Of a stretch of 36,522 nucleotides of DNA, positions 1-33,509 are shown in pieces (the stretch's first letter is position 1; each line of letters opens with the position of its first letter). Under the pieces are notes generated by a model. It ran no database searches. It was not told the origin of the DNA and worked only from the letters and a program-made list of their open reading frames with translations. This DNA comes from a virus, in the UHGV virus genome UHGV-0118448; one strand, given 5' to 3'. The translations under genes and the position numbers were made by a program.

Positions 1-49
1 TGACGGGTAAAAAGTGGATAAAATAATTTTACCCACCGGATTTTTACCC

Positions 50-1207
50 ATGCTCACCGTTAAGCAGATTGAAGCAGCAAAGCCGAAAGAAAAACCATAC
101 CGCCTACTCGATGGTAATGGCCTGTACCTTTATGTCCCTGTATCAGGGAAAAAGGTATGGCAGCTTCGCTACAAGATTGACGGTAAGGAGAAAATCCTGA
201 CCGTCGGAAAATATCCGCTTATGACTTTGCAGGAGGCAAGGGATAAAGCATGGACCGCGAGGAAAGACATCTCGGTTGGCATCGATCCGGTAAAGGCGAA
301 AAAGGCTTCGTCTAACAACAATTCCTTTAGTGCGATTTACAAGGAATGGTACGAGCACAAGAAGCAAGTATGGTCAGTAGGGTATGCGACTGAACTTGCA
401 AAAATGTTTGATGACGACATTTTACCTATCATCGGCGGCCTTGAAATTCAGGATATTGAGCCGATGCAACTGTTGGAAGTAATCCGCAGATTTGAAGATC
501 GCGGTGCAATGGAGCGAGCCAACAAAGCCCGCAGAAGATGCGGCGAGGTTTTCCGTTACGCTATTGTCACCGGAAGGGCTAAATATAACCCGGCACCTGA
601 CCTTGCAGACGCCATGAAAGGATACCGCAAGAAAAACTTCCCATTTTTACCTGCCGACCAGATCCCGGCATTCAACAAAGCACTTGCAACATTTTCAGGA
701 AGTATCGTATCGCTCATTGCGACCAAAGTTTTACGTTATACAGCCCTAAGAACGAAAGAGCTTCGTTCCATGCTATGGAAGAACGTCGATTTTGAAAACA
801 GGATTATCACCATCGACGCCAGTGTGATGAAGGGACGCAAAATTCATGTGGTCCCGATGTCAGACCAGGTGGTTGAACTTCTCACTACGCTAAGTTCAAT
901 CACCAAACCAGTCTCAGAGTTTGTTTTTGCCGGGCGCAACGATAAGAAGAAGCCAATCTGCGAGAACGCGGTATTGCTTGTGATCAAACAAATCGGCTAT
1001 GAAGGTCTGGAAAGCGGTCACGGATTCAGGCATGAATTCAGCACGATTATGAACGAGCACGAATGGCCTGCTGACGCTATTGAAGTGCAACTGGCACATG
1101 CCAACGGCGGATCTGTGCGCGGTATTTACAACCATGCTCAGTATCTCGATAAGCGCAGAGAAATGATGCAGTGGTGGGCGGATTGGATTGATGAAAAGGT
1201 GGAGTGA
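50..1207 (+). CDS. int: Tyrosine integrase (P4/IntS-like, 385 aa from ATG 50)
   Basis: N-terminus MLTVKQIEAAKPKEKPYRLLDGNGLYLYV typical of arm-binding domain of P4-type integrases; C-terminal HGFRHEF box and conserved Tyr region (GIYNHAQY). ORF track starts at GTG 14; ATG 50 matches the family N-terminus. Confidence 0.9.
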   Translation: MLTVKQIEAAKPKEKPYRLLDGNGLYLYVPVSGKKVWQLRYKIDGKEKILTVGKYPLMTLQEARDKAWTARKDISVGIDPVKAKKASSNNNSFSAIYKEWYEHKKQVWSVGYATELAKMFDDDILPIIGGLEIQDIEPMQLLEVIRRFEDRGAMERANKARRRCGEVFRYAIVTGRAKYNPAPDLADAMKGYRKKNFPFLPADQIPAFNKALATFSGSIVSLIATKVLRYTALRTKELRSMLWKNVDFENRIITIDASVMKGRKIHVVPMSDQVVELLTTLSSITKPVSEFVFAGRNDKKKPICENAVLLVIKQIGYEGLESGHGFRHEFSTIMNEHEWPADAIEVQLAHANGGSVRGIYNHAQYLDKRREMMQWWADWIDEKVE

Positions 1208-1430: not shown

Positions 1431-3335
1431 TCATGCGGATGGCGCATAAATTCCGTTAAAGTTAATTGAAATATCGTAATGTTGCATGTTGGCAGGAGTA
1501 ATCAGTAAATCTCTAAGTGTAACAACCACCCAGGGATTATCAGTGTTTGCTTTATCACAATAAACTCTTGTCGTTGTGGTTGACCCGGCATATACAGATA
1601 CATTTGCCGCAGATAATGTTCCGTCACTAGTGGCGTAATATGTTGCTGATGGCATTGTTGCAGTGCGGCCATGCGTTATTTCCACGATGCCAGCACTCAC
1701 CACAGAAACAGAGATATTATTTCTAATCCACTCTGGGACACCAGAGCCTGAAGGCGGTCTTCCATAACGAATGACTCCTGTTTTTGTATTAACAATAAAA
1801 GAGACGTCGGCATACACCGTGATTTTTAAAGTGAATGCATTGCCAACACGAAGTGGCTCTGCGTAGGCCCTGGCACCTTCTATACCCATAGTGCGATTGA
1901 CATATGCTGTAGCATAAAACCAGTTTTCTGCATTGTCTGCAATTTCTACAGAAAAATATTCCCCATCAGCAGAAACAACTAATTTATGGGCATTGGAAAT
2001 TTTCCATTCACTGTTTACTTCTTTAGATAAAAGAACCCATTTATCGTTATCATTGCTGTATTTAATAGTACCAGCGACTAATTTTGATCTTGTCCAAGGT
2101 GGGGCAAAATTTGAATATTGCGCTAAATCGGTTGAGGTTTTATTACTCGCCCCTCCTTTGACTATAGACCATAACCCCCTAGCACCTTCTCGCCCCATCG
2201 TATTGTAACCACGTTGTGTATAATGGACGCCTCCATCGTAAGTGCCAATATTGCCATCACCTTTTAAAAATGAAGGACAACCATCAAATACTGTCACAGC
2301 ATCAGTTTTGTTATTACAAACCCATCTTTGTGCATTTTGAATAGCAGCCCATGATTCTTCCGTTCGGTTCCCAGGGCAACCAACGGTAAAATTACCAAAT
2401 AAATCAAAATTAATATCGGCTTTCAGGTCATCTATCAAGGCTATAAAGCGGTCTCTATAAGAATTGTATGTGGTTCCTGATGACATATCCGTTTCACCCT
2501 GATGGAACAATACATACGTTTTACCGACAGGCAGACCTGCGGCAACCATCGCCTTTTTAGCTGATACCACGGCATTCACCAACAGCGAGTAGTATGTTGT
2601 CCCTTTTGATAGATGTGCTATCGACATTGCGCCACGGCCACAATGTATCTCCACTGAACCGCGCCCACTAAGGCGATACCATTCATTCTCAAATTCTCCC
2701 CAGGCATGTCCTGATGATGCAACTCCTGAAGAACTAACCACATTCTGAATTATTGGCTTTATAGTTCCATCTTTAAAATCGTACATTAACGATTTAGGAA
2801 GAGGATCTGGAAAACCTGATGTATCACCTGATAAAATAGCCTCGCCTGCGCTATTTGATTGCCCATACGTAACAAACACATCATATACATTTGGCGACTC
2901 AAGGTATTCTGTTGCAATAACATTACTTGCTATTTTTGATGCGGTTACTCCAGATATCATTACTGTACTATTAGTTTCTGACAACCTGCTTTCTAATTGA
3001 TCTGGATCATACTTCAATACGTTTGGAAAATAGAATTGCTGCGAACCATACGCATCATAAACAGCCATAGAATGGCCTTGCACAGTTACGAATTTGGCAA
3101 TCTGTCCGTTATATACAGGGTAACCAGCAGCGTTAATGATGATTGGTTGAGAAACAGGAACGTGAGAGCCATCTTCGTTCTCCACATAAGCCTGAATCTG
3201 GTTTTCAGGATTTACAGGGTCAGTATCAATTTTACCGATATAAATTTTGCCATTAGCTACGGCTTTAAAGGAACGAGCCATAGTGAAGAGTTGCGAAGGC
3301 ATTCCAATTACAACATTTGGGGTGATTTCCGTCAT
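1431..3335 (-). CDS. Tailspike protein: P22 gp9-type head-binding N-terminus fused to a carbohydrate-esterase-like (GQSN / HQGETD) receptor-binding region
   Basis: From internal Met: [43 protein letters not shown] matches the P22 tailspike head-binding domain; AGGA Shine-Dalgarno 8 nt upstream of ATG at 3335; downstream motifs [14 protein letters not shown] and VLFHQGETD. Gene is AT-rich relative to neighbours. Confidence 0.85.
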
Positions 3336-3526
3336 GGGCGCAATCCTATTAGATTGACTCGATAAAGAAGAGAATGGAGTTAATGCTACAAATGACGCTA
3401 TTGATTTGAAAAATGATCTTCTGTTCATTTAAGACACTCTTTAAGCATGACATTTGGTAGTAATGTAAGAAAAAATTACAATCAACTCCATAGCTATTTA
3501 ATTTTTAAAAGTGATTCACACCTGCA

Positions 3527-5920
3527 TTACCCTGACAACACATCAGACTTAGCACCCTGAGTCAGGGCGTTAATGGCCTTTTGCGCCTGCTGCATGGCTT
3601 TCTCAAATGCTGTTGACCCGCGTGGGGTATTTGCCATTCGGAGCATTGCATTTCTGAATGGTTCGCTCTCATAGGCGCGCGTAAGAAGTCCGTAGCTTAC
3701 TGCTGCGCCAGTTGTCGCCGGGTTCATTGCCGTCCCATACCCAATAATGAACGGGATAGTTTGCTGCCCTGTGGGTGTTGTTACTGCCGCTTTTGCAGCC
3801 TGCTGCGTGGATTGCAGGTAGTTTTTTAATCCTTTCAGATAAGCGGCTTCCTGACCTTTAAATGTGATGCCAGTCTGGTTTTGCAGGATGTTAAGCTGTC
3901 GAAGGAACTGGTCAGGGGAGCCACCTGATTTCTCCATCGCCTTTCCAATGATGCCATTGCGCATTTGCGCCCTGCCAACACGACCAACTGAGTTATACAG
4001 CGTCTTAATTTCCGATTTGTTCTTGCTGAATAGCATGTTGTTGACAACTTCCGGCGTCAGGTCGCCTTTCATGAGAACATTCTTCAGCCTGGTATTCTTT
4101 AGTTTCGCCGCTTCGTCAGCGTAGACGGCATTGGCCTGCTGATATTTACGGAGAGTATCGTTGCCAAGATTCTGACCAATGGCACCATTGATATCGTCGG
4201 TCATTGCCTTGTAAACGCGCTGAATGGCAGCATCGGAACGGTTTGGTAACACTGGTCGCTCCCCCTTCACGTCCATTCTGAACTGGCTGCGCAGATCGCT
4301 TAATTGCTTCAAATCCAGATTTACCGGACCATCAGGACCAGCATTGCGAACAAGCTCATCACGATAGGACTGAAGTTTTGAAATAGTCTCGTTATCAGCA
4401 ACCTTACCAAGCTTCTGCAGGTTAGATATTTCTGTATCAATCTGCTGAATTGCTCTTGCAGGCTGAATGTTTATTCCTGCCATAGCATTCTGAACCTGCT
4501 CAAGACGGTTCCCTGCAGCACGACGAATTCCTGATGTTTTCGCTTTAAGGCTGTCAATAACAACAGCTGGATCATACTCACCGAATTTATCAGCAAATCT
4601 CTGCACCAACTGGCTTCTCGCTTCCTGTTGCGTTGCTCTCATTCCGCTTGTGCCAGCCAGGGGGATATTTTCCGCTGTCGTCTGCGCCATTTTTCCGACG
4701 CGGGAAGTGGGTTGTAACAGGTCTGTGGTGTGCAGAGGAACTCCTTCACGTTCTGCAAATCTGATAGCCTGTTGCGCTTCTGGTGCTATCGAACCACGAA
4801 CACCACGATAAGCAGCACCTAATCCACGTCCGGCAGCGTTAATAGCACCGCCAGCCAGCACACCAACGCCTAAATCGGTGGCGAGTGCTTCCGCATCATC
4901 TTTCGCACTGTTTGCAGCAAGTGATCCAACTGCGTTTTCTGCGAGAAGGCGAGTTGCCCCCTGAGCAATTCGACCAGCAAGTGTTGGTGCCTGTGCTGCC
5001 GCTCTCTCAACGCCAGCAGGAGTGAGGTAAGGCAATGCTTCAGCAAATACCCTTCCCTCTGTCGTTTGTGGAGTCAGCGCGCCTTGCTGAAGGCCAAAGT
5101 CCTGCTCTAATCCCTGCGTTGTTACTCGTGGTGCTGGTTGATATGTACCATCGCCAATGCCGAGTTTACCGCCAGCCCAAGCCGCCGCGCTTGTTACAGC
5201 ATCAGTGAGTTCAGCAGGTATGTTCGCTACGTTGATTCCTGCCTGTAGTAAGCCGCGCCCGGTTTCAGCAAGTCCATTACCAAGGTCAGACATTATTCCG
5301 CCTTGCTGCTGAACAGGTTTCGGTGCGACAGAACTTACGGGTTGAGGTGGCTGCTGACTGGCTGCCTGCTGCTCAATCTGAGCAAATGGATTATTTGGGT
5401 CTGACTGCACGCCTGATGCCGATACTTGTTCGGATGACTGTGCTTCCAGTTGTGCAAACGGGTTGTTAGGGTCTTGCTGAGGATGTACCTTTGCAGAGGT
5501 GGCGCGCTGTTCGACTGTTGAGTCTGTCACCGGGTCACCCGCCCATTGAGCAAAGCGATCATCAACGTAACCGCGGCCTTCAGGTCCTGGCGTATATTCA
5601 CCACGCTTTGCCTTCATAACGTTGCCGGGACCGTCGTGATAAGCCTGAAGAGCGTCACGCCAGTTACCAAACTGCTGGTACATCTTTGCCAGATAGCGCG
5701 CGCCAGCGTCAGCCTGATATTCGGGGTTTTGCATTTGCTCATCGGTATAACCCATATCACGCCATGTCCCAGGCATGACCTGAGTCAATCCTACAGCCCC
5801 GGCGGAGCTTACTGCGGCAGGGTTGTAAGAAGACTCCTTGGCACCCAGTGCAGTCATCAACCCTTCTGGCACACCGTAACGTGCGCCAGCCTGCTCTAAC
5901 AAATCACGGTAATTAGCCAT
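3527..5920 (-). CDS. Ejection (internal virion) protein, gp16 position, with N-terminal lytic transglycosylase-like domain
   Basis: Last gene of the 7-20-16 ejection-protein block by synteny; N-terminus contains GLTQVMPGTW and surrounding SLT-like motifs; 797 aa, Ala/Gln-rich low-complexity middle. Confidence 0.75.
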   Translation of the reverse strand: MANYRDLLEQAGARYGVPEGLMTALGAKESSYNPAAVSSAGAVGLTQVMPGTWRDMGYTDEQMQNPEYQADAGARYLAKMYQQFGNWRDALQAYHDGPGNVMKAKRGEYTPGPEGRGYVDDRFAQWAGDPVTDSTVEQRATSAKVHPQQDPNNPFAQLEAQSSEQVSASGVQSDPNNPFAQIEQQAASQQPPQPVSSVAPKPVQQQGGIMSDLGNGLAETGRGLLQAGINVANIPAELTDAVTSAAAWAGGKLGIGDGTYQPAPRVTTQGLEQDFGLQQGALTPQTTEGRVFAEALPYLTPAGVERAAAQAPTLAGRIAQGATRLLAENAVGSLAANSAKDDAEALATDLGVGVLAGGAINAAGRGLGAAYRGVRGSIAPEAQQAIRFAEREGVPLHTTDLLQPTSRVGKMAQTTAENIPLAGTSGMRATQQEARSQLVQRFADKFGEYDPAVVIDSLKAKTSGIRRAAGNRLEQVQNAMAGINIQPARAIQQIDTEISNLQKLGKVADNETISKLQSYRDELVRNAGPDGPVNLDLKQLSDLRSQFRMDVKGERPVLPNRSDAAIQRVYKAMTDDINGAIGQNLGNDTLRKYQQANAVYADEAAKLKNTRLKNVLMKGDLTPEVVNNMLFSKNKSEIKTLYNSVGRVGRAQMRNGIIGKAMEKSGGSPDQFLRQLNILQNQTGITFKGQEAAYLKGLKNYLQSTQQAAKAAVTTPTGQQTIPFIIGYGTAMNPATTGAAVSYGLLTRAYESEPFRNAMLRMANTPRGSTAFEKAMQQAQKAINALTQGAKSDVLSG

Positions 5921-7252
5921 TTACTGCCCCAAAGATGGAAGATATCCGTAGCGATTAATGAAGTCGATTGACAGCTCGGGGTGTTGCTTCAGGTAATCTA
6001 TAGAAGCCTGAGGCGCTTCCACTCGCTTGATACCGTTTTGCTGAACGTACTTACCAACCGCCTCATTACGCTTCTGGTTGAGCGTGTTCAGGATGACGCC
6101 AGCGTTGCGACGAAAGGACTCCTCGCTCTGCGAGTTCTGCAGCGAACCAACAGCCTGGTCGAGCTTTTTGCCCTCGGCATCAGAAAGTGCGCCCATGCCT
6201 CGCATGGCCTGAACCGCTGTCAGGTATGCTTGGGATTTAAAGGTATCAAGTCGTGCCTGAGTGTCTGCAGCCTGTGAGCCTGGAACGTTGGGGATTACTC
6301 CACGTAAGCCTGTAATGCTCTTAAGTGAAGGAGAACTAACGATATCGTTCAGAGTGAACATGCTGGTTGTGAGGGTGTTGATGCCGTCTTTGTAGCCATC
6401 ATTTAGCGCTTGCTGCTTCTGCTGCAACTGCTGGTTGTTGGCTGCTATGCGGCTCTGTATTTCCTGGCGCTTCAGGTCGTTAGTTTCTGCTGATAGCATC
6501 CGGTCAAGGCGCTTATTTTCGTTGTTAATGCGGTTTGTTTCTGCGTCTAGATTAATGCGCTGCTGACCTAAATTCGCCTGGATATCTTGTCCGCGCATTG
6601 TGATTGCCTGATTCCGAGCGGCGGTTTGCGAATCCAGATCCTGACCGCGCATGGTAACCTGGCGACCCTGCATTTTATCCTGTAGGTCAAAGTATTTTTC
6701 GGGCCCGAGACTGTTCATCCCCAGGTGATCGACAAATTCGCCGAACTGCCGCGGGTTCTGTTGGTACATCTGAGCGACGTCCTGAGGATTAACGCCAACA
6801 CGAGCTAACTCACCGGCGTTGTTTTGCAGCCATGATTGCATTGCTTCTGGAGACGATGACGCAAGGCGTGCGCCAGCCGCTAAGGTGCCGATAGAATTAC
6901 GCTGGTCTTCATCAATGAACCCCATGCCTTTACGGACGGATTCAATCTGGTCTGGATATTGAGTAGCCAACTGACGCAAAGCACCGCGATCACCAGACGC
7001 ATAAGCATTAGCGTACGCCTGCTGAAATTCTTTCTGCCGCTGAGCCTGCTTTTCCTGCTGAAACACCCCTGCAATGCCTGAAAGGCCTTGCAAAGCAGTA
7101 AGCCCAACATTGTTAGCGCCTGAACGCTCAATATCATTGTTCTGCCTGATAAGCTGAAGCGTATTGCCGATGTCATTTACGCTCGGAGCGTTTGAGTTGA
7201 CGCCGCCGATACCAGCCAACAATCCGCCATTTGATCCTTGCCAAGTAGCCAT
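5921..7252 (-). CDS. Ejection protein (P22 gp20 position)
   Basis: Position between gp7-like and gp16-like genes; Gln/Asn-rich, coiled-coil-like composition typical of ejection proteins. Confidence 0.65.
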   Translation of the reverse strand: MATWQGSNGGLLAGIGGVNSNAPSVNDIGNTLQLIRQNNDIERSGANNVGLTALQGLSGIAGVFQQEKQAQRQKEFQQAYANAYASGDRGALRQLATQYPDQIESVRKGMGFIDEDQRNSIGTLAAGARLASSSPEAMQSWLQNNAGELARVGVNPQDVAQMYQQNPRQFGEFVDHLGMNSLGPEKYFDLQDKMQGRQVTMRGQDLDSQTAARNQAITMRGQDIQANLGQQRINLDAETNRINNENKRLDRMLSAETNDLKRQEIQSRIAANNQQLQQKQQALNDGYKDGINTLTTSMFTLNDIVSSPSLKSITGLRGVIPNVPGSQAADTQARLDTFKSQAYLTAVQAMRGMGALSDAEGKKLDQAVGSLQNSQSEESFRRNAGVILNTLNQKRNEAVGKYVQQNGIKRVEAPQASIDYLKQHPELSIDFINRYGYLPSLGQ

Positions 7253-7261
7253 GATTACCCC

Positions 7262-7954
7262 TTAAAACAACGAGCCAAGCAATCCGATACCAGCACCAAT
7301 GCCAGCGCCCCAAGGTGTTGATGTTCCCAAAAGGCTGGCAAGACCTGCACCGGCAATCGCACCAGACGTTCCGCCACTAATTGCTGTCTGAAGACTTGAT
7401 GGTTTGTTGGCATTAGCAGCGGCAAGAGCTGCGCTTTGCTGTGCAATGCTGCTCATGTTGTTGGCGTACGTCTGCCCGGCGTTTGCCTGACCTTGCAGAG
7501 CACCAAGCCCAACGTTTGCCAGATTGTTGTAATTGCTCATCTGGTTTGATAACCAAGACTGACCGAGAGTCGGCGCGATCGTAGCCAGTTGATTGCTTGT
7601 GGCTGTCGAACCAAGTCCTCCCGTAGCCTCCGCAGCAGCAAGACTCTGGTAACGAGCCTGACCTGCAAGGTCTTTATACTGCAGAGAGTTGTAATACTGA
7701 TTAAGTGCCTGCCCCTGACCTTCTAAACTGGAAAGGTTCTGAAGCTGGTTAACATACTGCTCCGCAAGAGGCGTGAACGGAGCAAGGTTTTTCATGATCG
7801 TCTGCCACTGCTGATTTTGCAGGTCTGCGGCATACTTCTGAGCTTCTGCTGCATACTTTGCGCTTTTATCAGAGCTACCACCTTTCCCGCCTTTTTCATG
7901 GCACCAAGGTTCCTCGCCGCGCAGTTTTCTGCCCAGCTTAAATGCATATAACAT
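7262..7954 (-). CDS. Ejection protein (P22 gp7-like)
   Basis: 230 aa, N-terminus MLYAFKLGRKLRGEEP and Gly/Ala-rich C-terminus as in P22 gp7; synteny. Confidence 0.75.
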   Translation of the reverse strand: MLYAFKLGRKLRGEEPWCHEKGGKGGSSDKSAKYAAEAQKYAADLQNQQWQTIMKNLAPFTPLAEQYVNQLQNLSSLEGQGQALNQYYNSLQYKDLAGQARYQSLAAAEATGGLGSTATSNQLATIAPTLGQSWLSNQMSNYNNLANVGLGALQGQANAGQTYANNMSSIAQQSAALAAANANKPSSLQTAISGGTSGAIAGAGLASLLGTSTPWGAGIGAGIGLLGSLF

Positions 7955-7956
7955 GG

Positions 7957-8412
7957 CTATCTCCCGTGATTCAGGAAGTCGATTAGTTCTTCGCGTGTGG
8001 CGCTGTAAAAAGTCACGTCATCCACGCCTTTGAAGTATTTCTTGATGGTTCCTACACGCTTAAGGCCAATCATTGCGCAGTACATCTGACCGTGGCGGAA
8101 TTTGCGTGCGGCGAACGATGTGACGCACTGAACGGTGGTGTTAGTCAGAATGTATCGCCAGAACGCCAGCCCGATTTCCTTGCTGAAGCCGCGAATCTCT
8201 GGCAGGTACATGGCGTGGCAATCGAATGTCAGCGGCTGAATCTCCTGATAGTAAACAATTCCGCCGAACTGACCGTGCACGTTCACCTCAAAGTAACGGC
8301 ATTCAGGTTTGTAGTCGTATCCATCGCCGTTGTTGCTCCCGGCGATAATGTCAGGGTGATTTCCGACTGCTTCTATCAGGTCGATGTTTCGCGTTGGTTT
8401 GAATGTAATCAT
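7957..8412 (-). CDS. Head completion / tail accessory protein (P22 gp14 position)
   Basis: Synteny between tail needle and ejection proteins; 151 aa. Confidence 0.55.
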   Translation of the reverse strand: MITFKPTRNIDLIEAVGNHPDIIAGSNNGDGYDYKPECRYFEVNVHGQFGGIVYYQEIQPLTFDCHAMYLPEIRGFSKEIGLAFWRYILTNTTVQCVTSFAARKFRHGQMYCAMIGLKRVGTIKKYFKGVDDVTFYSATREELIDFLNHGR

Positions 8413-9113: not shown

Positions 9114-10531
9114 TACTCAATCCTTATCTGGCAGCCTGACAGAGTGACAGGTGACTTCGTGATAACGCGCAATTTGAAGCCGACATTTTTCCTGATGCGC
9201 CCGACTCGCTTCCACAAAACGCGTTTGTCGTAAACGAACGGTTCATTCTGCTCAATCATCTGCTCACGTCCGTAATTGATTCCGTCAGTGGTTGCAGAAA
9301 GGAACAGGCGGTCGGCGTACTGCGCAACGCCAGTTGACGATTCAACCTCAAGGTCGAACACTCTGGCGTTATCTGCTTTGAACAGCGGAGTAAACAGAAG
9401 ATGTTCCTGTTGCTTGTCGTACTGGCTGCTGATGTCGAATTGCAATTTCCCGGTCACGGACTCCAGCTTATCGCCGCACGTTATCTGATTTCCTTCGTAA
9501 ATGAAGTCAATAGCGCGGTACACATCGTCATATAAGCCTGTTTTCAGCACACACCATTGTGGGCCATTGGCGCTTGAAGATGCGTCGTACACGAGGACGT
9601 GGCGCGGAAGGTGGATAATCAGCAACTCATGAGCATCAAATCGCAGCGATTCCATTACACCATCAGCCAGTTCATTAGCAGTGTAGGAGCGTAGTATTTT
9701 CTCAATGCTCGCGCTGGCGATTGGTGACACCTGCCCGGAGCCGATGATGTATACAGACGGCGCACCTGTTGCCGGATTGCTGATGAACGCATAGGAATCA
9801 GCAAACGGCGTTTTGCAGTAAGTTCCGGCGATGCCTTTTTGCACCATCAGCGATGGCTGCGCGACATACAAAGCAGCACCAACGGTAGTTGCGCCTGTCA
9901 GGGAGAAATATTCAATCGTCGATGAACCAAAGCAGACGATGAAGTCTCGCCATGTACCTATGCCGATGATGCCGTCCGGCTGCGATTCTGCGCGATATTG
10001 TGCGCTGTAACGGTCAGGATGCGATTCGTCTTCAAGGTCAGTGATAAACCATGAATCAGTTCCGTCTTTTGACCACGCATAACGCCCACGTAAGCGCGTA
10101 ATGTCGCGAACTGAACCTAACTCGTACTGTGTGAATCCGCTGTCTGTAGGCCAGTTTGAGACGGTTTTAACCGTGCCATCATAGCGATACTCGACCAGTT
10201 GACCATTAACGCCTACCGCCTGTGATGTTCGACCATGCGCCATTGATACGCGACCACTTCCGGCAACATCACCAACCTCGCTTTCGCCCTTATACAGCTT
10301 GCCACCACACACGCGATAAACAGCATTCTGCGCCATGTTGTACTCGACGCCTCGCGATACGCCGTTCACATCAGAACGTTTGGCAATGCCCGGGAATGAG
10401 CGAAGATATCCGCTGCTGTTGAGGATTTCTTTGGGTGTAGCCAACATATTCACTGGTAGATAGTCGATATAGTCAGCGTTTCTAAAGTCTTTGCCGACAC
10501 CTTTCATAAGCGGAAGTTGCTGAATCGGCAT
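9113..10531 (-). CDS. Tail hub / head completion protein (P22 gp10-like)
   Basis: 472 aa, same length and position as P22 gp10; start codon overlaps upstream stop. Confidence 0.8.
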
Positions 10532-11008
10532 TATTCGCTCCCATTATCGCAAGGTTCCTTTCGGTGGAAGTAATTCCAACCGTTCCACTTCGCCAACTGG
10601 TTTCCACTGCCAACAGGCATACGGTTTGGATAACCGGACTTACATTTAGCGGCTTTTGCTCTGTCCATTGCAGACAGTTTGACGAGTCGCTCTTTCCCGT
10701 ATCTGGCAGTGGTTATAAGTTTTGCTGACGCTTCCAGCGCATAATCCGGAGCAATGCGGCAGGCAAGGTTGAAAATGACGGCATTGATAGCGTTATTTGA
10801 TAAACCGTGCTCATCGCCCGGATCCGGAGCGACATCTGCATCAGCAAAAATGTAGCCAACGTTGATCCCAGGTGACGCATCACCGCCAAGCCATTCAGCC
10901 ATCATCATTTCAAGGTCGTTGACGCCGTCTTCCATAGACTGCGGTTCGACATCAGTTAACGTGGCATTTGATGCCACACCGAGCTTACGTAATGCCGCAA
11001 GGACTAAA

Positions 11009-11031
<23 letters not shown>
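10531..11031 (-). CDS. Head-tail adaptor (P22 gp4-like), start at internal Met [10 protein letters not shown]
   Basis: [33 protein letters not shown] matches P22 gp4 N-terminus; the longer ORF-track start runs through a hexanucleotide repeat giving an SQSQSQ artefact. Confidence 0.8.
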
Positions 11032-11263
<232 letters not shown>

Positions 11264-19222: not shown

Positions 19223-19690
19223 TCATCGAAGGCATTGCGTCCTGATGTATTCCTGAAGCGTTCTCAGTGCTGTTTGGTCGCGGATAATTCCGTCCCGGAC
19301 ACCGAGAACGTTTCGTCCAGCAACTGGAGAGAGTTCGACGGTGGCATCATTGCCCATGCCGGAGGCGCCGGAGGTTTCGGCTGAGGATGGCACAGGGCAT
19401 TTTCCTTTGACGAGCACCCTGCCACCATTATCAAGCTTGCGCCGAAGAGCATCATTTTCAGCTTTCGCATCAGCTAACTCCTTCGTGTATTTAGCATCGA
19501 GTGCATCAGCAGCACGCTGGCGTTGCTGCATGTCAGTAATGGTGGCGGTCGCCTGCTTCAGCTCACTGACTTTTTTATCTCGCTGTTCTTTGTAGGCGAT
19601 GGCGTTATCACGGTAGTGATTAACAGCCCATGACAGGCAAACGATGATGCAGATAACCAGAGCGGAGATAATCGCGGTTACTCTGCTCAT
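19223..19690 (-). CDS. Rz: Spanin, inner-membrane subunit (Rz)
   Basis: N-terminal TM segment [23 protein letters not shown]; coiled-coil middle; follows endolysin. Confidence 0.9.
19264..19470 (-). CDS. Rz1: Spanin, outer-membrane lipoprotein subunit (Rz1), embedded in Rz in +1 frame
   Basis: [21 protein letters not shown] lipobox (VAGC) followed by Pro-rich [11 protein letters not shown], fully inside Rz. Confidence 0.8.
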
Positions 19691-20163
19691 ACCTCAATCT
19701 CTCTGACCATTCCGCCAGCTTCTTTGAATTTTGCAATCAGGTTGTCAGCCTTATGCTCGAACTGACCATAACCAGCCCCCGGCAGTGAAGCCCAGATATT
19801 GCTGCAACGGTCGATTGCCTGACGGATATCACCGCGATCAATCATCGGTAAAGCGCCACGCTCTTTAATCTGTTGCAGTGCCACAGCGTCCTGGCTTTTC
19901 GGAGAGAAGTCTTTCAGGCCAAGCTGCTTACGATAGGCATCCCACCAACGGGAAAGAAGCTGGTAGCGTCCGGCGGCTGTTGATTTGAGTTTGGGGTTTA
20001 GCGTGACAAGTTTGCGAGGGTGATCGGAGTAATCAGTTAATAGCTCTCCGCCTACAATGACGTCATAACCATGATTTCTGGTTTTCTGACGTCCGTTATC
20101 AGTTCCCTCTGACCACGCCAGCATATCGAGGAACGCCTTACGTTGATTATTGATTTCCACCAT
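19687..20163 (-). CDS. R: Endolysin (lambda R-type lytic transglycosylase)
   Basis: [39 protein letters not shown]... essentially lambda R. Confidence 0.95.
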
Positions 20164-20470
20164 CTTCTACTCCGGCTTTTTTAGCAGCGAAGCGTTTGAT
20201 AAGCGAACCAATCGAGTCAGTACCGATGTAGCCGATGAACACGCTCGTTATATAAGCGAGATTGCTACTTAGTCCGGCGAAGTCGAGAAGGTCACGAATG
20301 AACCAGGCGATAATGGCGCACATCGTTGCGTCGATTACTGTTTTTGTAAACGCACCGCCATTATATCTGCCGCGAAGGTACGCCATTGCAAACGCAAGGA
20401 TTGCCCCGATGCCTTGTTCCTTTGCCGCGAGAATGGCGGCTAACAGGTCATGTTTTTCTGGCATCTTCAT
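20147..20470 (-). CDS. S: Holin (lambda S-type, dual-start MKM)
   Basis: [41 protein letters not shown]... essentially lambda S107/S105. Confidence 0.95.
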
Positions 20471-30990: not shown

Positions 30991-31161
30991 ATGCAACAGT
31001 TCGCTATTGCAGGGGCGGCATCGGTTCGCCCTTTCAACCCGATTTTATCGGTACAGCATTCACGAAAAAATATTTTAACCGGAGCAGACTTTAAACAACC
31101 AAGAATGAAAAGTTTGCTCGAAAAGCTTTGGGATATTTTGAAACAACAAGGCCGCCCATGA
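30991..31161 (+). CDS. cIII: CIII-like protease inhibitor (56 aa)
   Basis: MQQFAIAGA... N-terminus and amphipathic KSLLEKLWDILKQQG region parallel lambda CIII; AAGGAG Shine-Dalgarno. Confidence 0.7.
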   Translation: MQQFAIAGAASVRPFNPILSVQHSRKNILTGADFKQPRMKSLLEKLWDILKQQGRP

Positions 31162-31316
31162 GTTTTACAGATAACTGGTCAGACGAAGAATTCATTCGTC
31201 AGATGAAAGAATTAATCGGTAACGAAGGAGATATTCATGTCACTTGCAACCACAGTGAAGGAGAGCAAGTTACAGAGACGCATGTACACGCAGAAAGCTC
31301 TCTGGTATCGCCATAA
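31158..31316 (+). CDS. Small protein after cIII (Kil position)
   Basis: ATGA-coupled start MSFTDNWSDEEF...; position-based only. Confidence 0.35.
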   Translation: MSFTDNWSDEEFIRQMKELIGNEGDIHVTCNHSEGEQVTETHVHAESSLVSP

Positions 31317-31415
31317 TGGTGACCGCGAAGGAATGCGGGTATGCCTTAATTTGTCCCGAGTCGAAGTATTAAATCAGCGTTATTTCCTTGGGCCGTGTCC
31401 ATTCTGAGGTGAATT

Positions 31416-32123
31416 ATGGATTTGAATAAATTCGATGAGCCATTCAGCCACGAAGATATCGAATGGCGAATACAGCAAAGCGGTAAAACACGCGATGGCA
31501 AGGTGTGGGCTATGGTGCTGGCTTATGTCACGAACCGGGCAATCATGAAACGCCTGGATGATGTTTGCGGCAAAGCAGGATGGCGCAATGAATACCGCGA
31601 TATTCCCAACAACGGCGGAGTTGAATGCGGCATATCAATCAAGATTGATTCCGAATGGGTAACCAAATGGGATGCTGCTGAAAACACGCAGGTAGAAGCC
31701 GTCAAAGGTGGTCGTTCCGGTGCAATGAAGCGTGCTGCCGTTCAGTGGGGAATCGGTCGGTATCTGTATAACCTTGAGGAAGGTTTCGCACAAACATCTC
31801 TCGACAAAAAGCAGGGATGGCACAGGGCAAAACTCAAGGATGGAACAGGATTTTACTGGCTCCCTCCATCGCTGCCGGGCTGGGCAATCCCAGCATCAGA
31901 TAACAAACCATCACCAGAAAATACCAACCAGAAATCTCCATCGGTTGACTGCGAACAAATCCTGAAAGACTTCAGCGATTATGCAGCGACAGAAACTGAC
32001 AAGAAAAAACTCATCGAGCGTTATCAGCATGACTGGCAATTAATGGCTGGAAACGAGGAGGCGCAGGCTAAATGCGTTCAGGTAATGAACATCAGAGTTA
32101 ACGAGCTAAAACAGGCGGCATAA
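31416..32123 (+). CDS. Single-strand annealing protein: Rad52-like (Sak/DUF1071-type) N-terminus with Erf-type C-terminal tail
   Basis: N-terminal FSHEDIEWRIQQSGKTRDGKVWAMVLAYV; C-terminal FSDYAATETDKKKLIERYQHDWQLMAGNEEAQAKCVQVMNIRVNELKQAA matches the P22 Erf C-terminus as recalled. Confidence 0.75.
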   Translation: MDLNKFDEPFSHEDIEWRIQQSGKTRDGKVWAMVLAYVTNRAIMKRLDDVCGKAGWRNEYRDIPNNGGVECGISIKIDSEWVTKWDAAENTQVEAVKGGRSGAMKRAAVQWGIGRYLYNLEEGFAQTSLDKKQGWHRAKLKDGTGFYWLPPSLPGWAIPASDNKPSPENTNQKSPSVDCEQILKDFSDYAATETDKKKLIERYQHDWQLMAGNEEAQAKCVQVMNIRVNELKQAA

Positions 32124-32639
32124 ATGGCAAGCAGAGGCGTAAATAAGGTGATCATTATTGGTCGCCTTGGGCATGATCCAGAAATCAGATATTCACCATC
32201 AGGAACGGCATTTGCAAACCTTACAGTTGCTACGTCAGAACAATGGCGTGATAAGCAAACTGGAGAGCAAAAGGAGCAGACGGAGTGGCACCGCGTGGTA
32301 ATGAGCGGGAAACTGGCAGAAATTGCCAGCGAATATCTGCGAAAAGGCTCTGAGGTTTATCTTGAAGGAAAATTGCGGACAAGAAAATGGCAGGATCAAA
32401 GCGGACAGGATCGGTTCACTACCGAAGTCATAGTGGGCGTTGGTGGAACCATGCAAATGCTTGGTGGCAAGCAAGGAGGCAATGAACAGTCTTCACCTCA
32501 GCGAAATGACGGTCAGCAACAAAGACAACAACCTCAGCAGCAAGGGAATCACAGCGAACCACCTATGGATTTTGACGACGATATCCCCTTTGCACCAGTA
32601 ACTCTCCCTTTCCCTCGTCACGCTATTCACGCAATTTAA
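32124..32639 (+). CDS. ssb: Single-stranded DNA-binding protein with 15-aa extension after the DDDIPF tip
   Basis: OB-fold N-terminus [59 protein letters not shown]; Gly/Gln-rich linker; MDFDDDIPF followed by [15 protein letters not shown]. Confidence 0.9.
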
Positions 32640-32647
32640 GGACTTAC

Positions 32648-33196
32648 ATGAATCACTTGATGGTTGACCTTGAAACAATGGGCAACGGGCCATACGCGCC
32701 AGTTATTTCTGTTGGGGCGGTATTCTTTGACCCGAATACCGGAGAAACAGGAGAAGAGTTCTCGGTAAATATCTCGCTTGAGTCATCAATGCGATATCGG
32801 GCGCGTCCTGACGCTTCAACGATTTTATGGTGGCTGGAACAGAGTGAAGAAGCCAGAAAATCGCTAACCAGCAACACTCAAGAGCTTTCAACGGCTCTTT
32901 CATGGTTATCTGAATTCATTATAAAGAACGCCAACCACAAACTCGTTCAGGTTTGGGGGAATGGAGCATCATTTGACTGCGTTATTCTCCGCAACAGTTA
33001 TTCGCTGACAGGGCAGCCAGTTCCGTGGCAGTGGTGGAATGACCGCGACGTAAGAACAATCGTCGAACTTGGGAAGGTAATAGGATTCGATCCTAAGCGA
33101 GATATGCCATTCAAAGGAACTCGCCACAACGCGCTTGATGATGCCATCCACCAAGCCAAATACGTTTCAGCGATCTGGAAAAAGTTAGCTAAATAA
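32648..33196 (+). CDS. DnaQ-like (DEDDh) 3'-5' exonuclease
   Basis: MVDLETMGNGPYAPVISVGAVFFD exo I motif; C-terminal HNALDDA exo III-like motif. Confidence 0.75.
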   Translation: MNHLMVDLETMGNGPYAPVISVGAVFFDPNTGETGEEFSVNISLESSMRYRARPDASTILWWLEQSEEARKSLTSNTQELSTALSWLSEFIIKNANHKLVQVWGNGASFDCVILRNSYSLTGQPVPWQWWNDRDVRTIVELGKVIGFDPKRDMPFKGTRHNALDDAIHQAKYVSAIWKKLAK

Positions 33197-33212
33197 TCAA
33201 CAGGAGAAAACC

Positions 33213-33509
33213 ATGCCAGCGCCTCTGTATGGTGCGGATGACCCGCGCCGCTGTTCCGGCAATTCCGTATCGGAGGTGCTGGATAAATTCAGAAAAAACT
33301 ACGATCGAATAATGTCTCTACAACAGGAAACGAAAGAGGAAAAGGAATTTCGCCACTGTATATGGCTTGCAGAGAAAGAAGAACGAGAGCGAATTTACCA
33401 GACATCAATCCGACCATTCCGCAAAGCCACATATACCCACTTCCCTGAATATATCGACCCGCGCCTGCGTAATTACCGCTCACGCTATGGCGCTATCAGT
33501 AATGACTGA
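33213..33509 (+). CDS. Hypothetical protein
   Basis: 98-aa ORF with AGGAG Shine-Dalgarno in early-left operon. Confidence 0.5.
   Translation: MPAPLYGADDPRRCSGNSVSEVLDKFRKNYDRIMSLQQETKEEKEFRHCIWLAEKEERERIYQTSIRPFRKATYTHFPEYIDPRLRNYRSRYGAISND

Follow-up and report, generated by a model that had tools for sequence, protein, structure and literature searches.

Why should a P22-like E. coli phage carry a predicted peptidoglycan-cutting domain on a protein that it ejects into its host, when most phages of this group infect well without one? The question is raised by a gene at positions 3527-5920 of the UHGV virus genome UHGV-0118448 (hereafter the window, i.e., the whole stretch of 36,522 nucleotides that was analysed); the gene stands where P22 has the gene of its ejection protein gp16, and its product of 797 amino acids (aa) starts with a predicted lytic transglycosylase domain of the SLT type. 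An original prediction, made from the letters of the sequence, had singled out this enlarged ejection protein and had proposed that the virion delivers a peptidoglycan-cutting activity at ejection, as phage T7 does with its own gp16. The analysis reported here supports this interpretation, with delivery at ejection argued by analogy to homologous proteins. The SLT-on-gp16 architecture is correct but ordinary, being already catalogued, and it is not a new kind of system; what the comparison with relatives adds is the linkage of the SLT module to one half of the neighbouring gp20 gene, and an old, conserved pair of short motifs that occurs also in a relative devoid of the enzyme domain.

The N-Terminal Lytic Transglycosylase Domain

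The assignment of aa 1-126 to the family-1 lytic transglycosylases is supported by the sequence, by a conserved glutamate and by the predicted fold. Regarding the sequence, the Pfam SLT profile (PF01464; GH23, family-1) matches aa 7-110 with E=2.8e-25 and 88.6 bits, against a cut-off of 21.3, a result far beyond chance; the best solved relative is Slt70 of Escherichia coli (PDB 1QSA/1QTE), with E=4.5e-10 and 33% identity over 144 aligned columns. In this alignment, Glu29-Ser30 falls on the catalytic Glu478-Ser479 of Slt70, and the N-terminal part of T7 gp16, which aligns with 28% identity over aa 2-119, places its Glu37-Ser38 on the same pair, so that Glu29 is the predicted catalytic acid. The SLT-like sequence GLTQVMPGTW, which had first drawn attention to the N-terminal ~120 aa, spans aa 44-53 and opens with motif II, GLTQ (aa 44-47). 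When the protein was aligned with 84 homologues (85 sequences in total), E29, S30, G44, Q47, Y94 and G97 were found to be invariant. Motif III, located at aa 92-98, reads AYHDGPG instead of the usual AYNAGPG: H95 and D96 are the sole departures from the consensus, and N95 and A96 are nearly invariant in the same alignment.

As for the fold, the AlphaFold2 model of aa 1-230 has a predicted local distance difference test score (pLDDT) of 90-98 for aa 1-110 and of ~50 for aa 130-230. Foldseek matched this model to the PDB entries of Slt70, which ranked best, and of Pseudomonas Slt, MltC, MltF, MltE and MltD, all with probability 1.00, and it also retrieved the N-terminal domain of T7 gp16 from the ejectosome structure 7K5C (7k5c_B). 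Enzymes of family 1 cleave the bonds between N-acetylmuramic acid and N-acetylglucosamine without hydrolysis, giving 1,6-anhydroMurNAc. Of the features of this family, a profile match above threshold, the glutamate of the E-S motif at the end of the second helix, motifs II and III, and a predicted lysozyme-like helical fold were found. Slt70 is the closest match by both sequence and structure, and shares the catalytic Glu and the ES, GLxQ and AYxxGxG motifs with the window domain; however, it is a secreted housekeeping enzyme with the catalytic domain at the C-terminus of a 618-residue chain, whereas the window domain stands alone at the N-terminus of a predicted virion protein.

The unusual motif III, with H and D at two positions (95 and 96) where N and A are nearly invariant, might indicate that the domain has ceased to be an enzyme and serves as a peptidoglycan-binding anchor or spacer that positions the channel, so that bond cleavage would be irrelevant; the lack of any such enzyme in most P22-like phages could be read in the same way. 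Such a role is quite unlikely: the Glu-Ser pair and GLxQ are invariant among the 85 sequences and retained by the divergent orthologues of Cronobacter and Klebsiella, a pattern to be expected of an active enzyme, and the predicted fold superposes on that of active transglycosylases.

The Gene, Its Body and Its Setting

The gene is one unbroken open reading frame (ORF) of 797 codons on the minus strand, a strand that the original prediction had left unstated, with an ATG start at 5920 that abuts the TAA of the upstream gp20 homologue with zero spacer (cagTAAATGgct), the usual arrangement of translationally coupled late genes. Gene order and profile matches identify the window as a P22-like (Lederbergvirus) phage or prophage: the minus strand encodes, in this order, terminase, portal, scaffold, coat, gp4, gp10, needle, gp14, gp7, gp20, the gene under study and the tailspike, and the order around this gene is the same as in Sf6, ST64T and P22. 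Because of the gp14-gp7-gp20-gene-tailspike succession, the gene occupies the gp16 position of the late operon, in line with the original prediction. The profile phrog_770 ('DNA transfer protein') matches aa 108-795, and precomputed Pfam annotation of 99%-identical database proteins lists PF01464 together with PF26808, that is Phage_P22_gp16.

The relation to P22 gp16 needed correction in two respects. The protein is a gp16 homologue as predicted, but its body is of the Sf6 gp13 type and not of the P22 type: aa 208-796 are identical to aa 76-664 of Sf6 gp13 at 573 of 589 residues (97%), whereas aa 314-786 have 36% identity with aa 138-601 of P22 gp16 over 481 aligned positions (E=1e-77). It is also longer than P22 gp16, which has 609 aa and no SLT domain, in agreement with the original prediction; nevertheless, the enlargement is not a simple addition, since a 207-aa N-terminal module replaces the 75-aa module of Sf6 gp13. 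The body is predicted to be all-helical. The full-length AlphaFold2 model, computed from 18 close-relative sequences, shows a helical body at low confidence (mean pLDDT 47, predicted template modelling score 0.29) and was left out of the fold searches; a sequence search of solved structures matched the SLT domain alone and gave no match for aa 208-797.

An ORF of this length could in principle be an artefact, produced by a frameshift or by an assembly fusion of a small transglycosylase gene with gp16, and Kosakonia phage Kc166B, whose annotation gives the SLT domain and linker an ORF of their own (310 aa) before another of 734 aa, might be taken as the unfused state. This explanation is hardly credible, given that the window has no separate gene for the N-terminal region, that the unbroken 797-codon frame is found in phages IME10 and phiKp_30 and in 52 complete E. 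coli genomes, and that the fused form recurs in several other genera.

The setting of the gene bears also on when the domain would act. Lytic transglycosylases serve some phages as endolysins, for instance lambda R, and the PHROG label of similar N-termini includes 'endolysin' (phrog_669), so that one could imagine the domain acting late in infection instead of at entry, either as an aid to lysis or on the cell that produces the phage. This is very improbable: the gene lies in the virion-assembly operon, its SLT domain is fused to an ejection protein, and the window has its own holin, endolysin and Rz genes (19223-20470) ~13 kb away, while an endolysin gene is expected next to holin and spanin genes. 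The N-terminus of the protein has no hydrophobic character and bears no resemblance to a signal peptide, neither a signal sequence nor a signal-arrest-release (SAR) sequence being present, and sequence analysis found no strongly hydrophobic segment anywhere in the 797 aa. Because an export signature is missing and the holin/endolysin/Rz cassette is separate, the SLT protein is taken to be neither a lysis enzyme nor a Sec-exported protein. The coordinates of these genes and of the modules discussed below are collected in Table 1.

Table 1. Location of the gp16-position gene, of its parts and of other genes in the window
Feature	Positions	Strand	Basis or remark
gp16-position ejection protein gene (SLT domain, linker, Phage_P22_gp16 body)	3527..5920	-	ORF list and translation
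Lytic transglycosylase (SLT, lysozyme-like) domain, predicted, aa 1-126	5543..5920	-	Pfam, AlphaFold2, Foldseek
Codon of Glu29 (GAG), predicted catalytic acid in the E-S motif	5834..5836	-	alignments
Linker rich in Q, P, A and S, predicted disordered, aa 127-207, ending in the recombination joint PVQQQG	5300..5542	-	pLDDT ~46-65
First motif copy, DPNNPFAQLE, aa 150-159	5444..5473	-	translation
Second motif copy, DPNNPFAQIE, aa 174-183	5372..5401	-	translation
gp16 body of Sf6 gp13 type, aa 208-797, predicted all-helical	3530..5299	-	homology to Sf6 and P22
Stop codon of the gp16-position gene	3527-3529	-	ORF list
gp20 homologue, 443 aa, periplasmic-tube ejection protein, directly upstream	5921..7252	-	Pfam Inj_translocase E=7.9e-68; phrog_2534
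gp20 homologue, C-terminal half (aa ~180-443), inherited jointly with the SLT module	5921..6715	-	nucleotide homology and linkage
gp7 homologue, 230 aa, outer-membrane/extracellular channel ejection protein	7262..7954	-	Pfam P22_gp7 E=6.6e-132
gp14 homologue	7957-8412	-	late operon
Tailspike	1431-3428	-	P22 head-binding domain and SASA/SGNH-type esterase domain
Integrase	14-1207		
Rz	19223-19690		separate lysis cassette
Endolysin	19687-20163		phrog_90
Holin	20147-20470		separate lysis cassette

Distribution and Relatives

The closest relative is phage IME10 (NC_019501), in which an ORF at 31064-33451 (L001 6001-8388) encodes 797 aa with 99.1% identity; Klebsiella phage phiKp_30 has the same protein at 94%. 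The RefSeq record of IME10 lists 27 features only and leaves this 797-codon gene unannotated. Among 5426 complete E. coli genomes, the full-length gene is present in 52 with 98-99% nucleotide identity, each copy being annotated as 'lytic transglycosylase domain-containing protein', the SLT module in 70 (~1.3%), and some form of the Sf6-type gene in 348; in a protein collection, the E. coli cluster of the 797-aa protein has 1295 member sequences. The IME10 ORF and the E. coli prophage proteins (98-99% identity) have the same 797 aa, the same three modules and the same neighbours as the window, with no difference of substance. Outside E. coli, full-length relatives with 72-86% identity occur in prophages of Cronobacter species, Klebsiella aerogenes, Kosakonia cowanii and Enterobacter; across genera the SLT domain is 81-98% identical with its catalytic residues intact, and the comparison indicates that the SLT-gp16 fusion is stable and under selection.

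Other phages share one part of the protein and differ in the rest. The N-terminal module is identical over aa 1-183 in phages Sf101, APC_JM3.2, Huey and Dewey. The gp13 of Shigella phage Sf101 (911 aa; named 'transglycosylase' or 'lytic tail fiber protein'; phrog_21143) is identical to the window protein over aa 1-206, and the gp20 of this phage is 98% identical; the body is instead different, with aa 221-353 being 81% identical to aa 53-189 of P22 gp16 and the rest unrelated to the Sf6 type. A 576-aa form is found at four IMG/VR loci (L017, L020, L027 and L028), with an identical SLT module and a body devoid of Sf6-type similarity; its length is that of the PHROG profile phrog_21143, 'lytic tail fiber protein'.

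Gp13 of Shigella phage Sf6 (665 aa) and the gp16 type of phages L and ST64T share with the window protein the gene position and the presumed role in the cytoplasmic-membrane channel, but the N-terminal module of Sf6 gp13 and ST64T has 75 aa (MAKAWKDVIAS...) and no enzyme domain, against the 207 aa of the window module, and the C-terminal half of Sf6 gp20 has 41.5% identity with that of the window. In P22 gp16 the N-terminal module has ~52 aa (MKVTANGK...). The modules of the window, of Sf6/ST64T and of P22 all run into a stretch rich in Q and P that directly precedes an invariant Met. In the window this is Met210 (5291-5293, minus strand), at the start of the body, which is invariant in the window, Sf6, ST64T, Sf101 and the Cronobacter and Klebsiella relatives; P22 gp16 has a Met in the same sequence context. 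A Shine-Dalgarno-like AAGGCGGAATA precedes Met210 of the window; it is present in some lineages only, and is missing from P22 and Sf101. Translation might also begin internally at Met210, which would give an SLT-less form of 588 aa.

More distant podophages, namely the Murrayvirus IME_EC2 (1007 aa), Skarpretter, Lumpael, sortsyn and the Kosakonia phages Kc259 and Kc166B, bear an N-terminal SLT domain with 50-63% identity on their gp16-position protein. These podophages have the same order of gp4, gp10, needle, gp14, gp7, gp20, gp16 and tailspike as the window, while their gp16-position bodies are of other lengths. In Kc166B, where the SLT domain and linker form the 310-aa ORF (L008:3408-4340) and the 734-aa ORF follows (4354-6558), either the modules are truly split or the record contains a frameshift.

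Regarding nomenclature, 665-aa Sf6-type gp16 proteins without the SLT domain (P0235, P0237; phages VSe13, MT932212, and S9-5, MW722521) are named 'lytic transglycosylase domain-containing protein' at NCBI; PF26808 is the sole Pfam match of these proteins, and for Sf6 gp13 no NCBIfam family matches at all, transglycosylase families included. The name appears to have spread from SLT-bearing to SLT-less relatives. As for the literature, a full-text search, with incomplete coverage of comparative virion-gene papers, found none that analyses SLT-bearing gp16 in P22-like phages. The phage E212 paper contains the annotation 'transglycosylase' in passing only, and a published review sampled P22, Sf6, HK620 and CUS-3; its statement on such domains is true for those four and not for the P22-like group.

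A gp20-gp16 Cassette

The SLT module does not travel alone. Nucleotide similarity to Sf6 breaks off at gp20 codon ~180 and is regained at gp16 codon 205; similarity to Sf101 extends from the gp20 start as far as gp16 codon 206. The gp20 C-terminal half of the window type was found in exactly six phages, the same six that carry the SLT module, the next best C-halves being at most 41.5% identical; in the E. coli genomes it occurs in 69 of 5426, against 70 of 5426 for the SLT module. A sample of 80 IMG/VR loci, two of them without a readable downstream ORF, gave the same picture: this C-half (74-100% identical) is followed by an SLT-bearing gene in 40/40 readable loci, and other C-halves by an SLT-less N-terminus in 37/37. 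The N-terminal part of gp20 (43-100% identical) and the gp16 body vary independently of this association, with gp16 lengths in the loci of 576, 790-797, 815, 836, 875, 886, 911 and 922 aa. The SLT module, the linker and the gp20 C-half are thus inherited as a single exchangeable mosaic cassette; because they remain linked while the gp20 N-terminal part and the gp16 body vary independently, the exchange joints are placed within the two genes, never at the border between them. A more restricted candidate, an SLT-specific tail at the very C-terminus of gp20, was rejected: the C-half of phage vB_EcoP-720R6 can be aligned up to aa 252 of 259, and the gp16 of this phage is SLT-less, with 665 aa.

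For P22, an AlphaFold3 prediction combines gp16 aa 1-205 with the C-terminal 'plinth' domain of gp20 (preprint 10.64898/2026.09.03.749273), which agrees with a contact between the two, and the cassette fits a docking of the gp16 N-terminal region on this plinth. The SLT domain might be largely a passenger, with selection acting on a docking cassette made of the gp20 C-half, the gp16 N-terminal module and its NPFAQ motifs (see below), a cassette that may also be unlike other cassette types in compatibility or in escape from superinfection exclusion; the perfect linkage between freely recombining flanks, the NPF-type motif pair in the SLT-less gp16 of Shewanella phage ZP9, and the ability of P22 to escape SieA exclusion through changes in gp16 and gp20 (PMC10883804) can all be read in this sense. 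Yet a passenger should decay or be lost, whereas this domain is 81-98% identical across genera and retains its catalytic residues, and distant podophages (IME_EC2, Skarpretter, Lumpael, the Kosakonia phages) have an SLT domain of 50-63% identity at the same position; the passenger reading is therefore considered unlikely.

The Linker and the NPFAQ Motif Pair

Between the SLT domain and the body, the linker counts 16 Q, 11 P, 10 A and 10 S among its 81 residues, and it contains the sequence DPNNPFAQ(L/I)E twice, at aa 150-159 and aa 174-183, as had been read from the translation. The two copies agree at 9 of 10 residues, against a best of 8 in 200 shuffles, a test that alone is modest; at the nucleotide level they match at 21 of 30 positions, and 7 of the 9 codons for identical residues differ synonymously. 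Both copies are kept in the Cronobacter, Klebsiella, Kosakonia and Enterobacter homologues (73-89% identical overall), in which the 14-residue spacer varies, and the first copy, DPNNPFAQLE, is conserved in 40/40 related IMG/VR loci. What had been described as a short internal duplication is thus better regarded, on these sequences, as an old, selected motif pair and not as a recent duplication. In the variants of 877-886 aa (P0210 and P0227; L014:5001-7661; L050), an insert of ~90 aa lies just after the second motif; it has no Pfam or PHROG match.

Related pairs occur elsewhere. The two distant proteins whose sequences were read, IME_EC2 gp26 and the Kc166B protein, have paired N-x-F-[AD]-[QE]-[FY] motifs, NIFDQFD with NVFDQFG in the former and NMFAQYA with NLFAEYA in the latter, and one copy precedes the SLT domain. 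The 723-aa gp16-position protein of Shewanella phage ZP9 (L013:4777-6948) has NPFDQFD twice, at aa 3-9 and 14-20, and showed no similarity to the window SLT domain in the comparison. Because such pairs are found also in an SLT-less gp16, the NPFAQ-type motif is assigned, by comparison of the sequences, to the gp16 N-terminal region and not to the enzyme. NNPF presumably resembles the NNPW of the colicin TolB box, a likeness that we take as a lead and not as evidence.

Proposed Role and Comparison with T7 gp16

A known counterpart of the window protein is T7 gp16, whose N-terminal lytic transglycosylase (structure 7K5C) is reportedly the subject of a study by Moak and Molineux in 2000. Ever since T7 gp16, internal ejection proteins have been known to bear peptidoglycan-cutting domains (PMC8954989; table in PMC5380687), and the genome entry of T7 depends on this transglycosylase if the peptidoglycan is highly cross-linked (PMC8954989). 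As in the window protein, the family-1 domain of T7 gp16 is N-terminal on the largest internal ejection protein and an extended segment comes next; in T7, this segment tapes the gp15 subunits together (PMC8954989). T7 gp16 differs in its length of 1318 aa and in being part of an ordered internal core stack, a structure missing from P22-like phages (PMC8954989). When the window protein was aligned with the first 265 aa of T7 gp16, no similarity was found beyond aa ~120, and the phrog_342 profile matches its aa 3-189 only. Both proteins have an N-terminal SLT domain with a catalytic Glu, while homology does not extend to the remaining ~1150 residues of T7 gp16; because the similarity is limited to the N-terminal part, the window protein is not placed in the T7 gp16 family, although it would resemble T7 gp16-N in its proposed role. 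Homology of the linker to the 'molecular tape' of T7 was also considered, and none was detected in the same alignment.

As for the P22 system, gp16 is carried in the virion and delivered to the cell ahead of the DNA (PMC10883804; 10.64898/2026.09.03.749273), and in situ gp20 is the tube that crosses the peptidoglycan, with gp16 at the cytoplasmic membrane (10.64898/2026.09.03.749273). On these analogies, the SLT domain is most probably a virion-delivered enzyme that opens the peptidoglycan for the ejection channel, as T7 gp16-N does. The gene belongs to a temperate P22-like phage of the IME10 kind and encodes its large internal ejection (E) protein, of which a few copies would be packaged in the head, as work on P22, Sf6 and T7 suggests; after adsorption, it would pass through the tail following gp7 and gp20, and its body would build the cytoplasmic-membrane part of the DNA channel beneath the periplasmic tube of gp20. 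The N-terminal enzyme would then refold in the periplasm on its flexible tether and cut the bonds between N-acetylmuramic acid and N-acetylglucosamine locally, widening the mesh of the peptidoglycan so that the channel can be completed. Following the T7 gp16-N analogy, such help would probably be needed only with a highly cross-linked wall, as in stationary phase or at low temperature.

Several points weigh against this role. Enzyme activity, the presence of an intact N-terminal domain in virions and its ejection into the cell are all argued from homologues, and the literature searched contains no experimental work on this or any other SLT-bearing gp16 of P22-like phages. H95 and D96 depart from a motif that is otherwise nearly invariant. 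Since P22, Sf6, L, ST64T and most other P22-like phages have no such domain and infect well, it can be at most conditionally useful; a conditional benefit would, on the other hand, explain why only a minority of these phages has the module. Furthermore, the domain could be redundant, since a muralytic activity of P22 virions is reported for gp4 (Moak & Molineux 2004 as tabulated in PMC5380687) and the window has a gp4 homologue. Finally, the linkage with the gp20 C-half could come from simple adjacency and not from function, and at the IMG/VR loci the SLT-less MAKAWKDVIAS N-terminus is combined with two or more subtypes of the gp20 C-half.

A further proposal concerns the cassette as a whole. 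The gp20 C-half and gp16 aa 1-206 might be co-adapted as a junction, in which the paired N-x-F-[AD]-[QE]-hydrophobic motifs act as short docking peptides, a functional analogue of the T7 'molecular tape' that ties gp16, with or without the tethered transglycosylase, to the plinth of gp20 along the inner side of the cell wall; or they might recruit a host periplasmic protein. This proposal is tentative, and rather doubtful at present; if true, the motif pair would be a previously undescribed, conserved element of the podophage ejectosome, independent of the enzyme domain.

Significance

A sizeable minority of P22-like prophages, in E. coli, Shigella, Cronobacter, Klebsiella and Kosakonia, carries a peptidoglycan-cutting domain, predicted as such, on gp16, and the module is swappable and moves with the C-terminal half of gp20. 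This distribution amounts to a natural experiment on when a short-tailed phage must cut the peptidoglycan, and on the parts of gp20 and gp16 that have to fit each other. In practical terms the gain is modest, and consists of a correction to the literature, a notice on the spread of a name at NCBI, and a motif that can be tested.

Other Genes of the Window

The tailspike contains a match to a carbohydrate esterase domain of the SASA/SGNH type at aa 182-414 (E=2.8e-12), which suggests that it may be a receptor enzyme of the deacetylase type. Its Pfam head-binding match begins at aa 32, and the true start is probably ~30 codons downstream of the listed ATG. Similarly, the homologue of the tail adaptor gp4 (10531-11124, minus strand) is listed with 197 aa, and its Pfam P22_Tail-4 match begins at aa 33; the start of this ORF may be over-extended as well.

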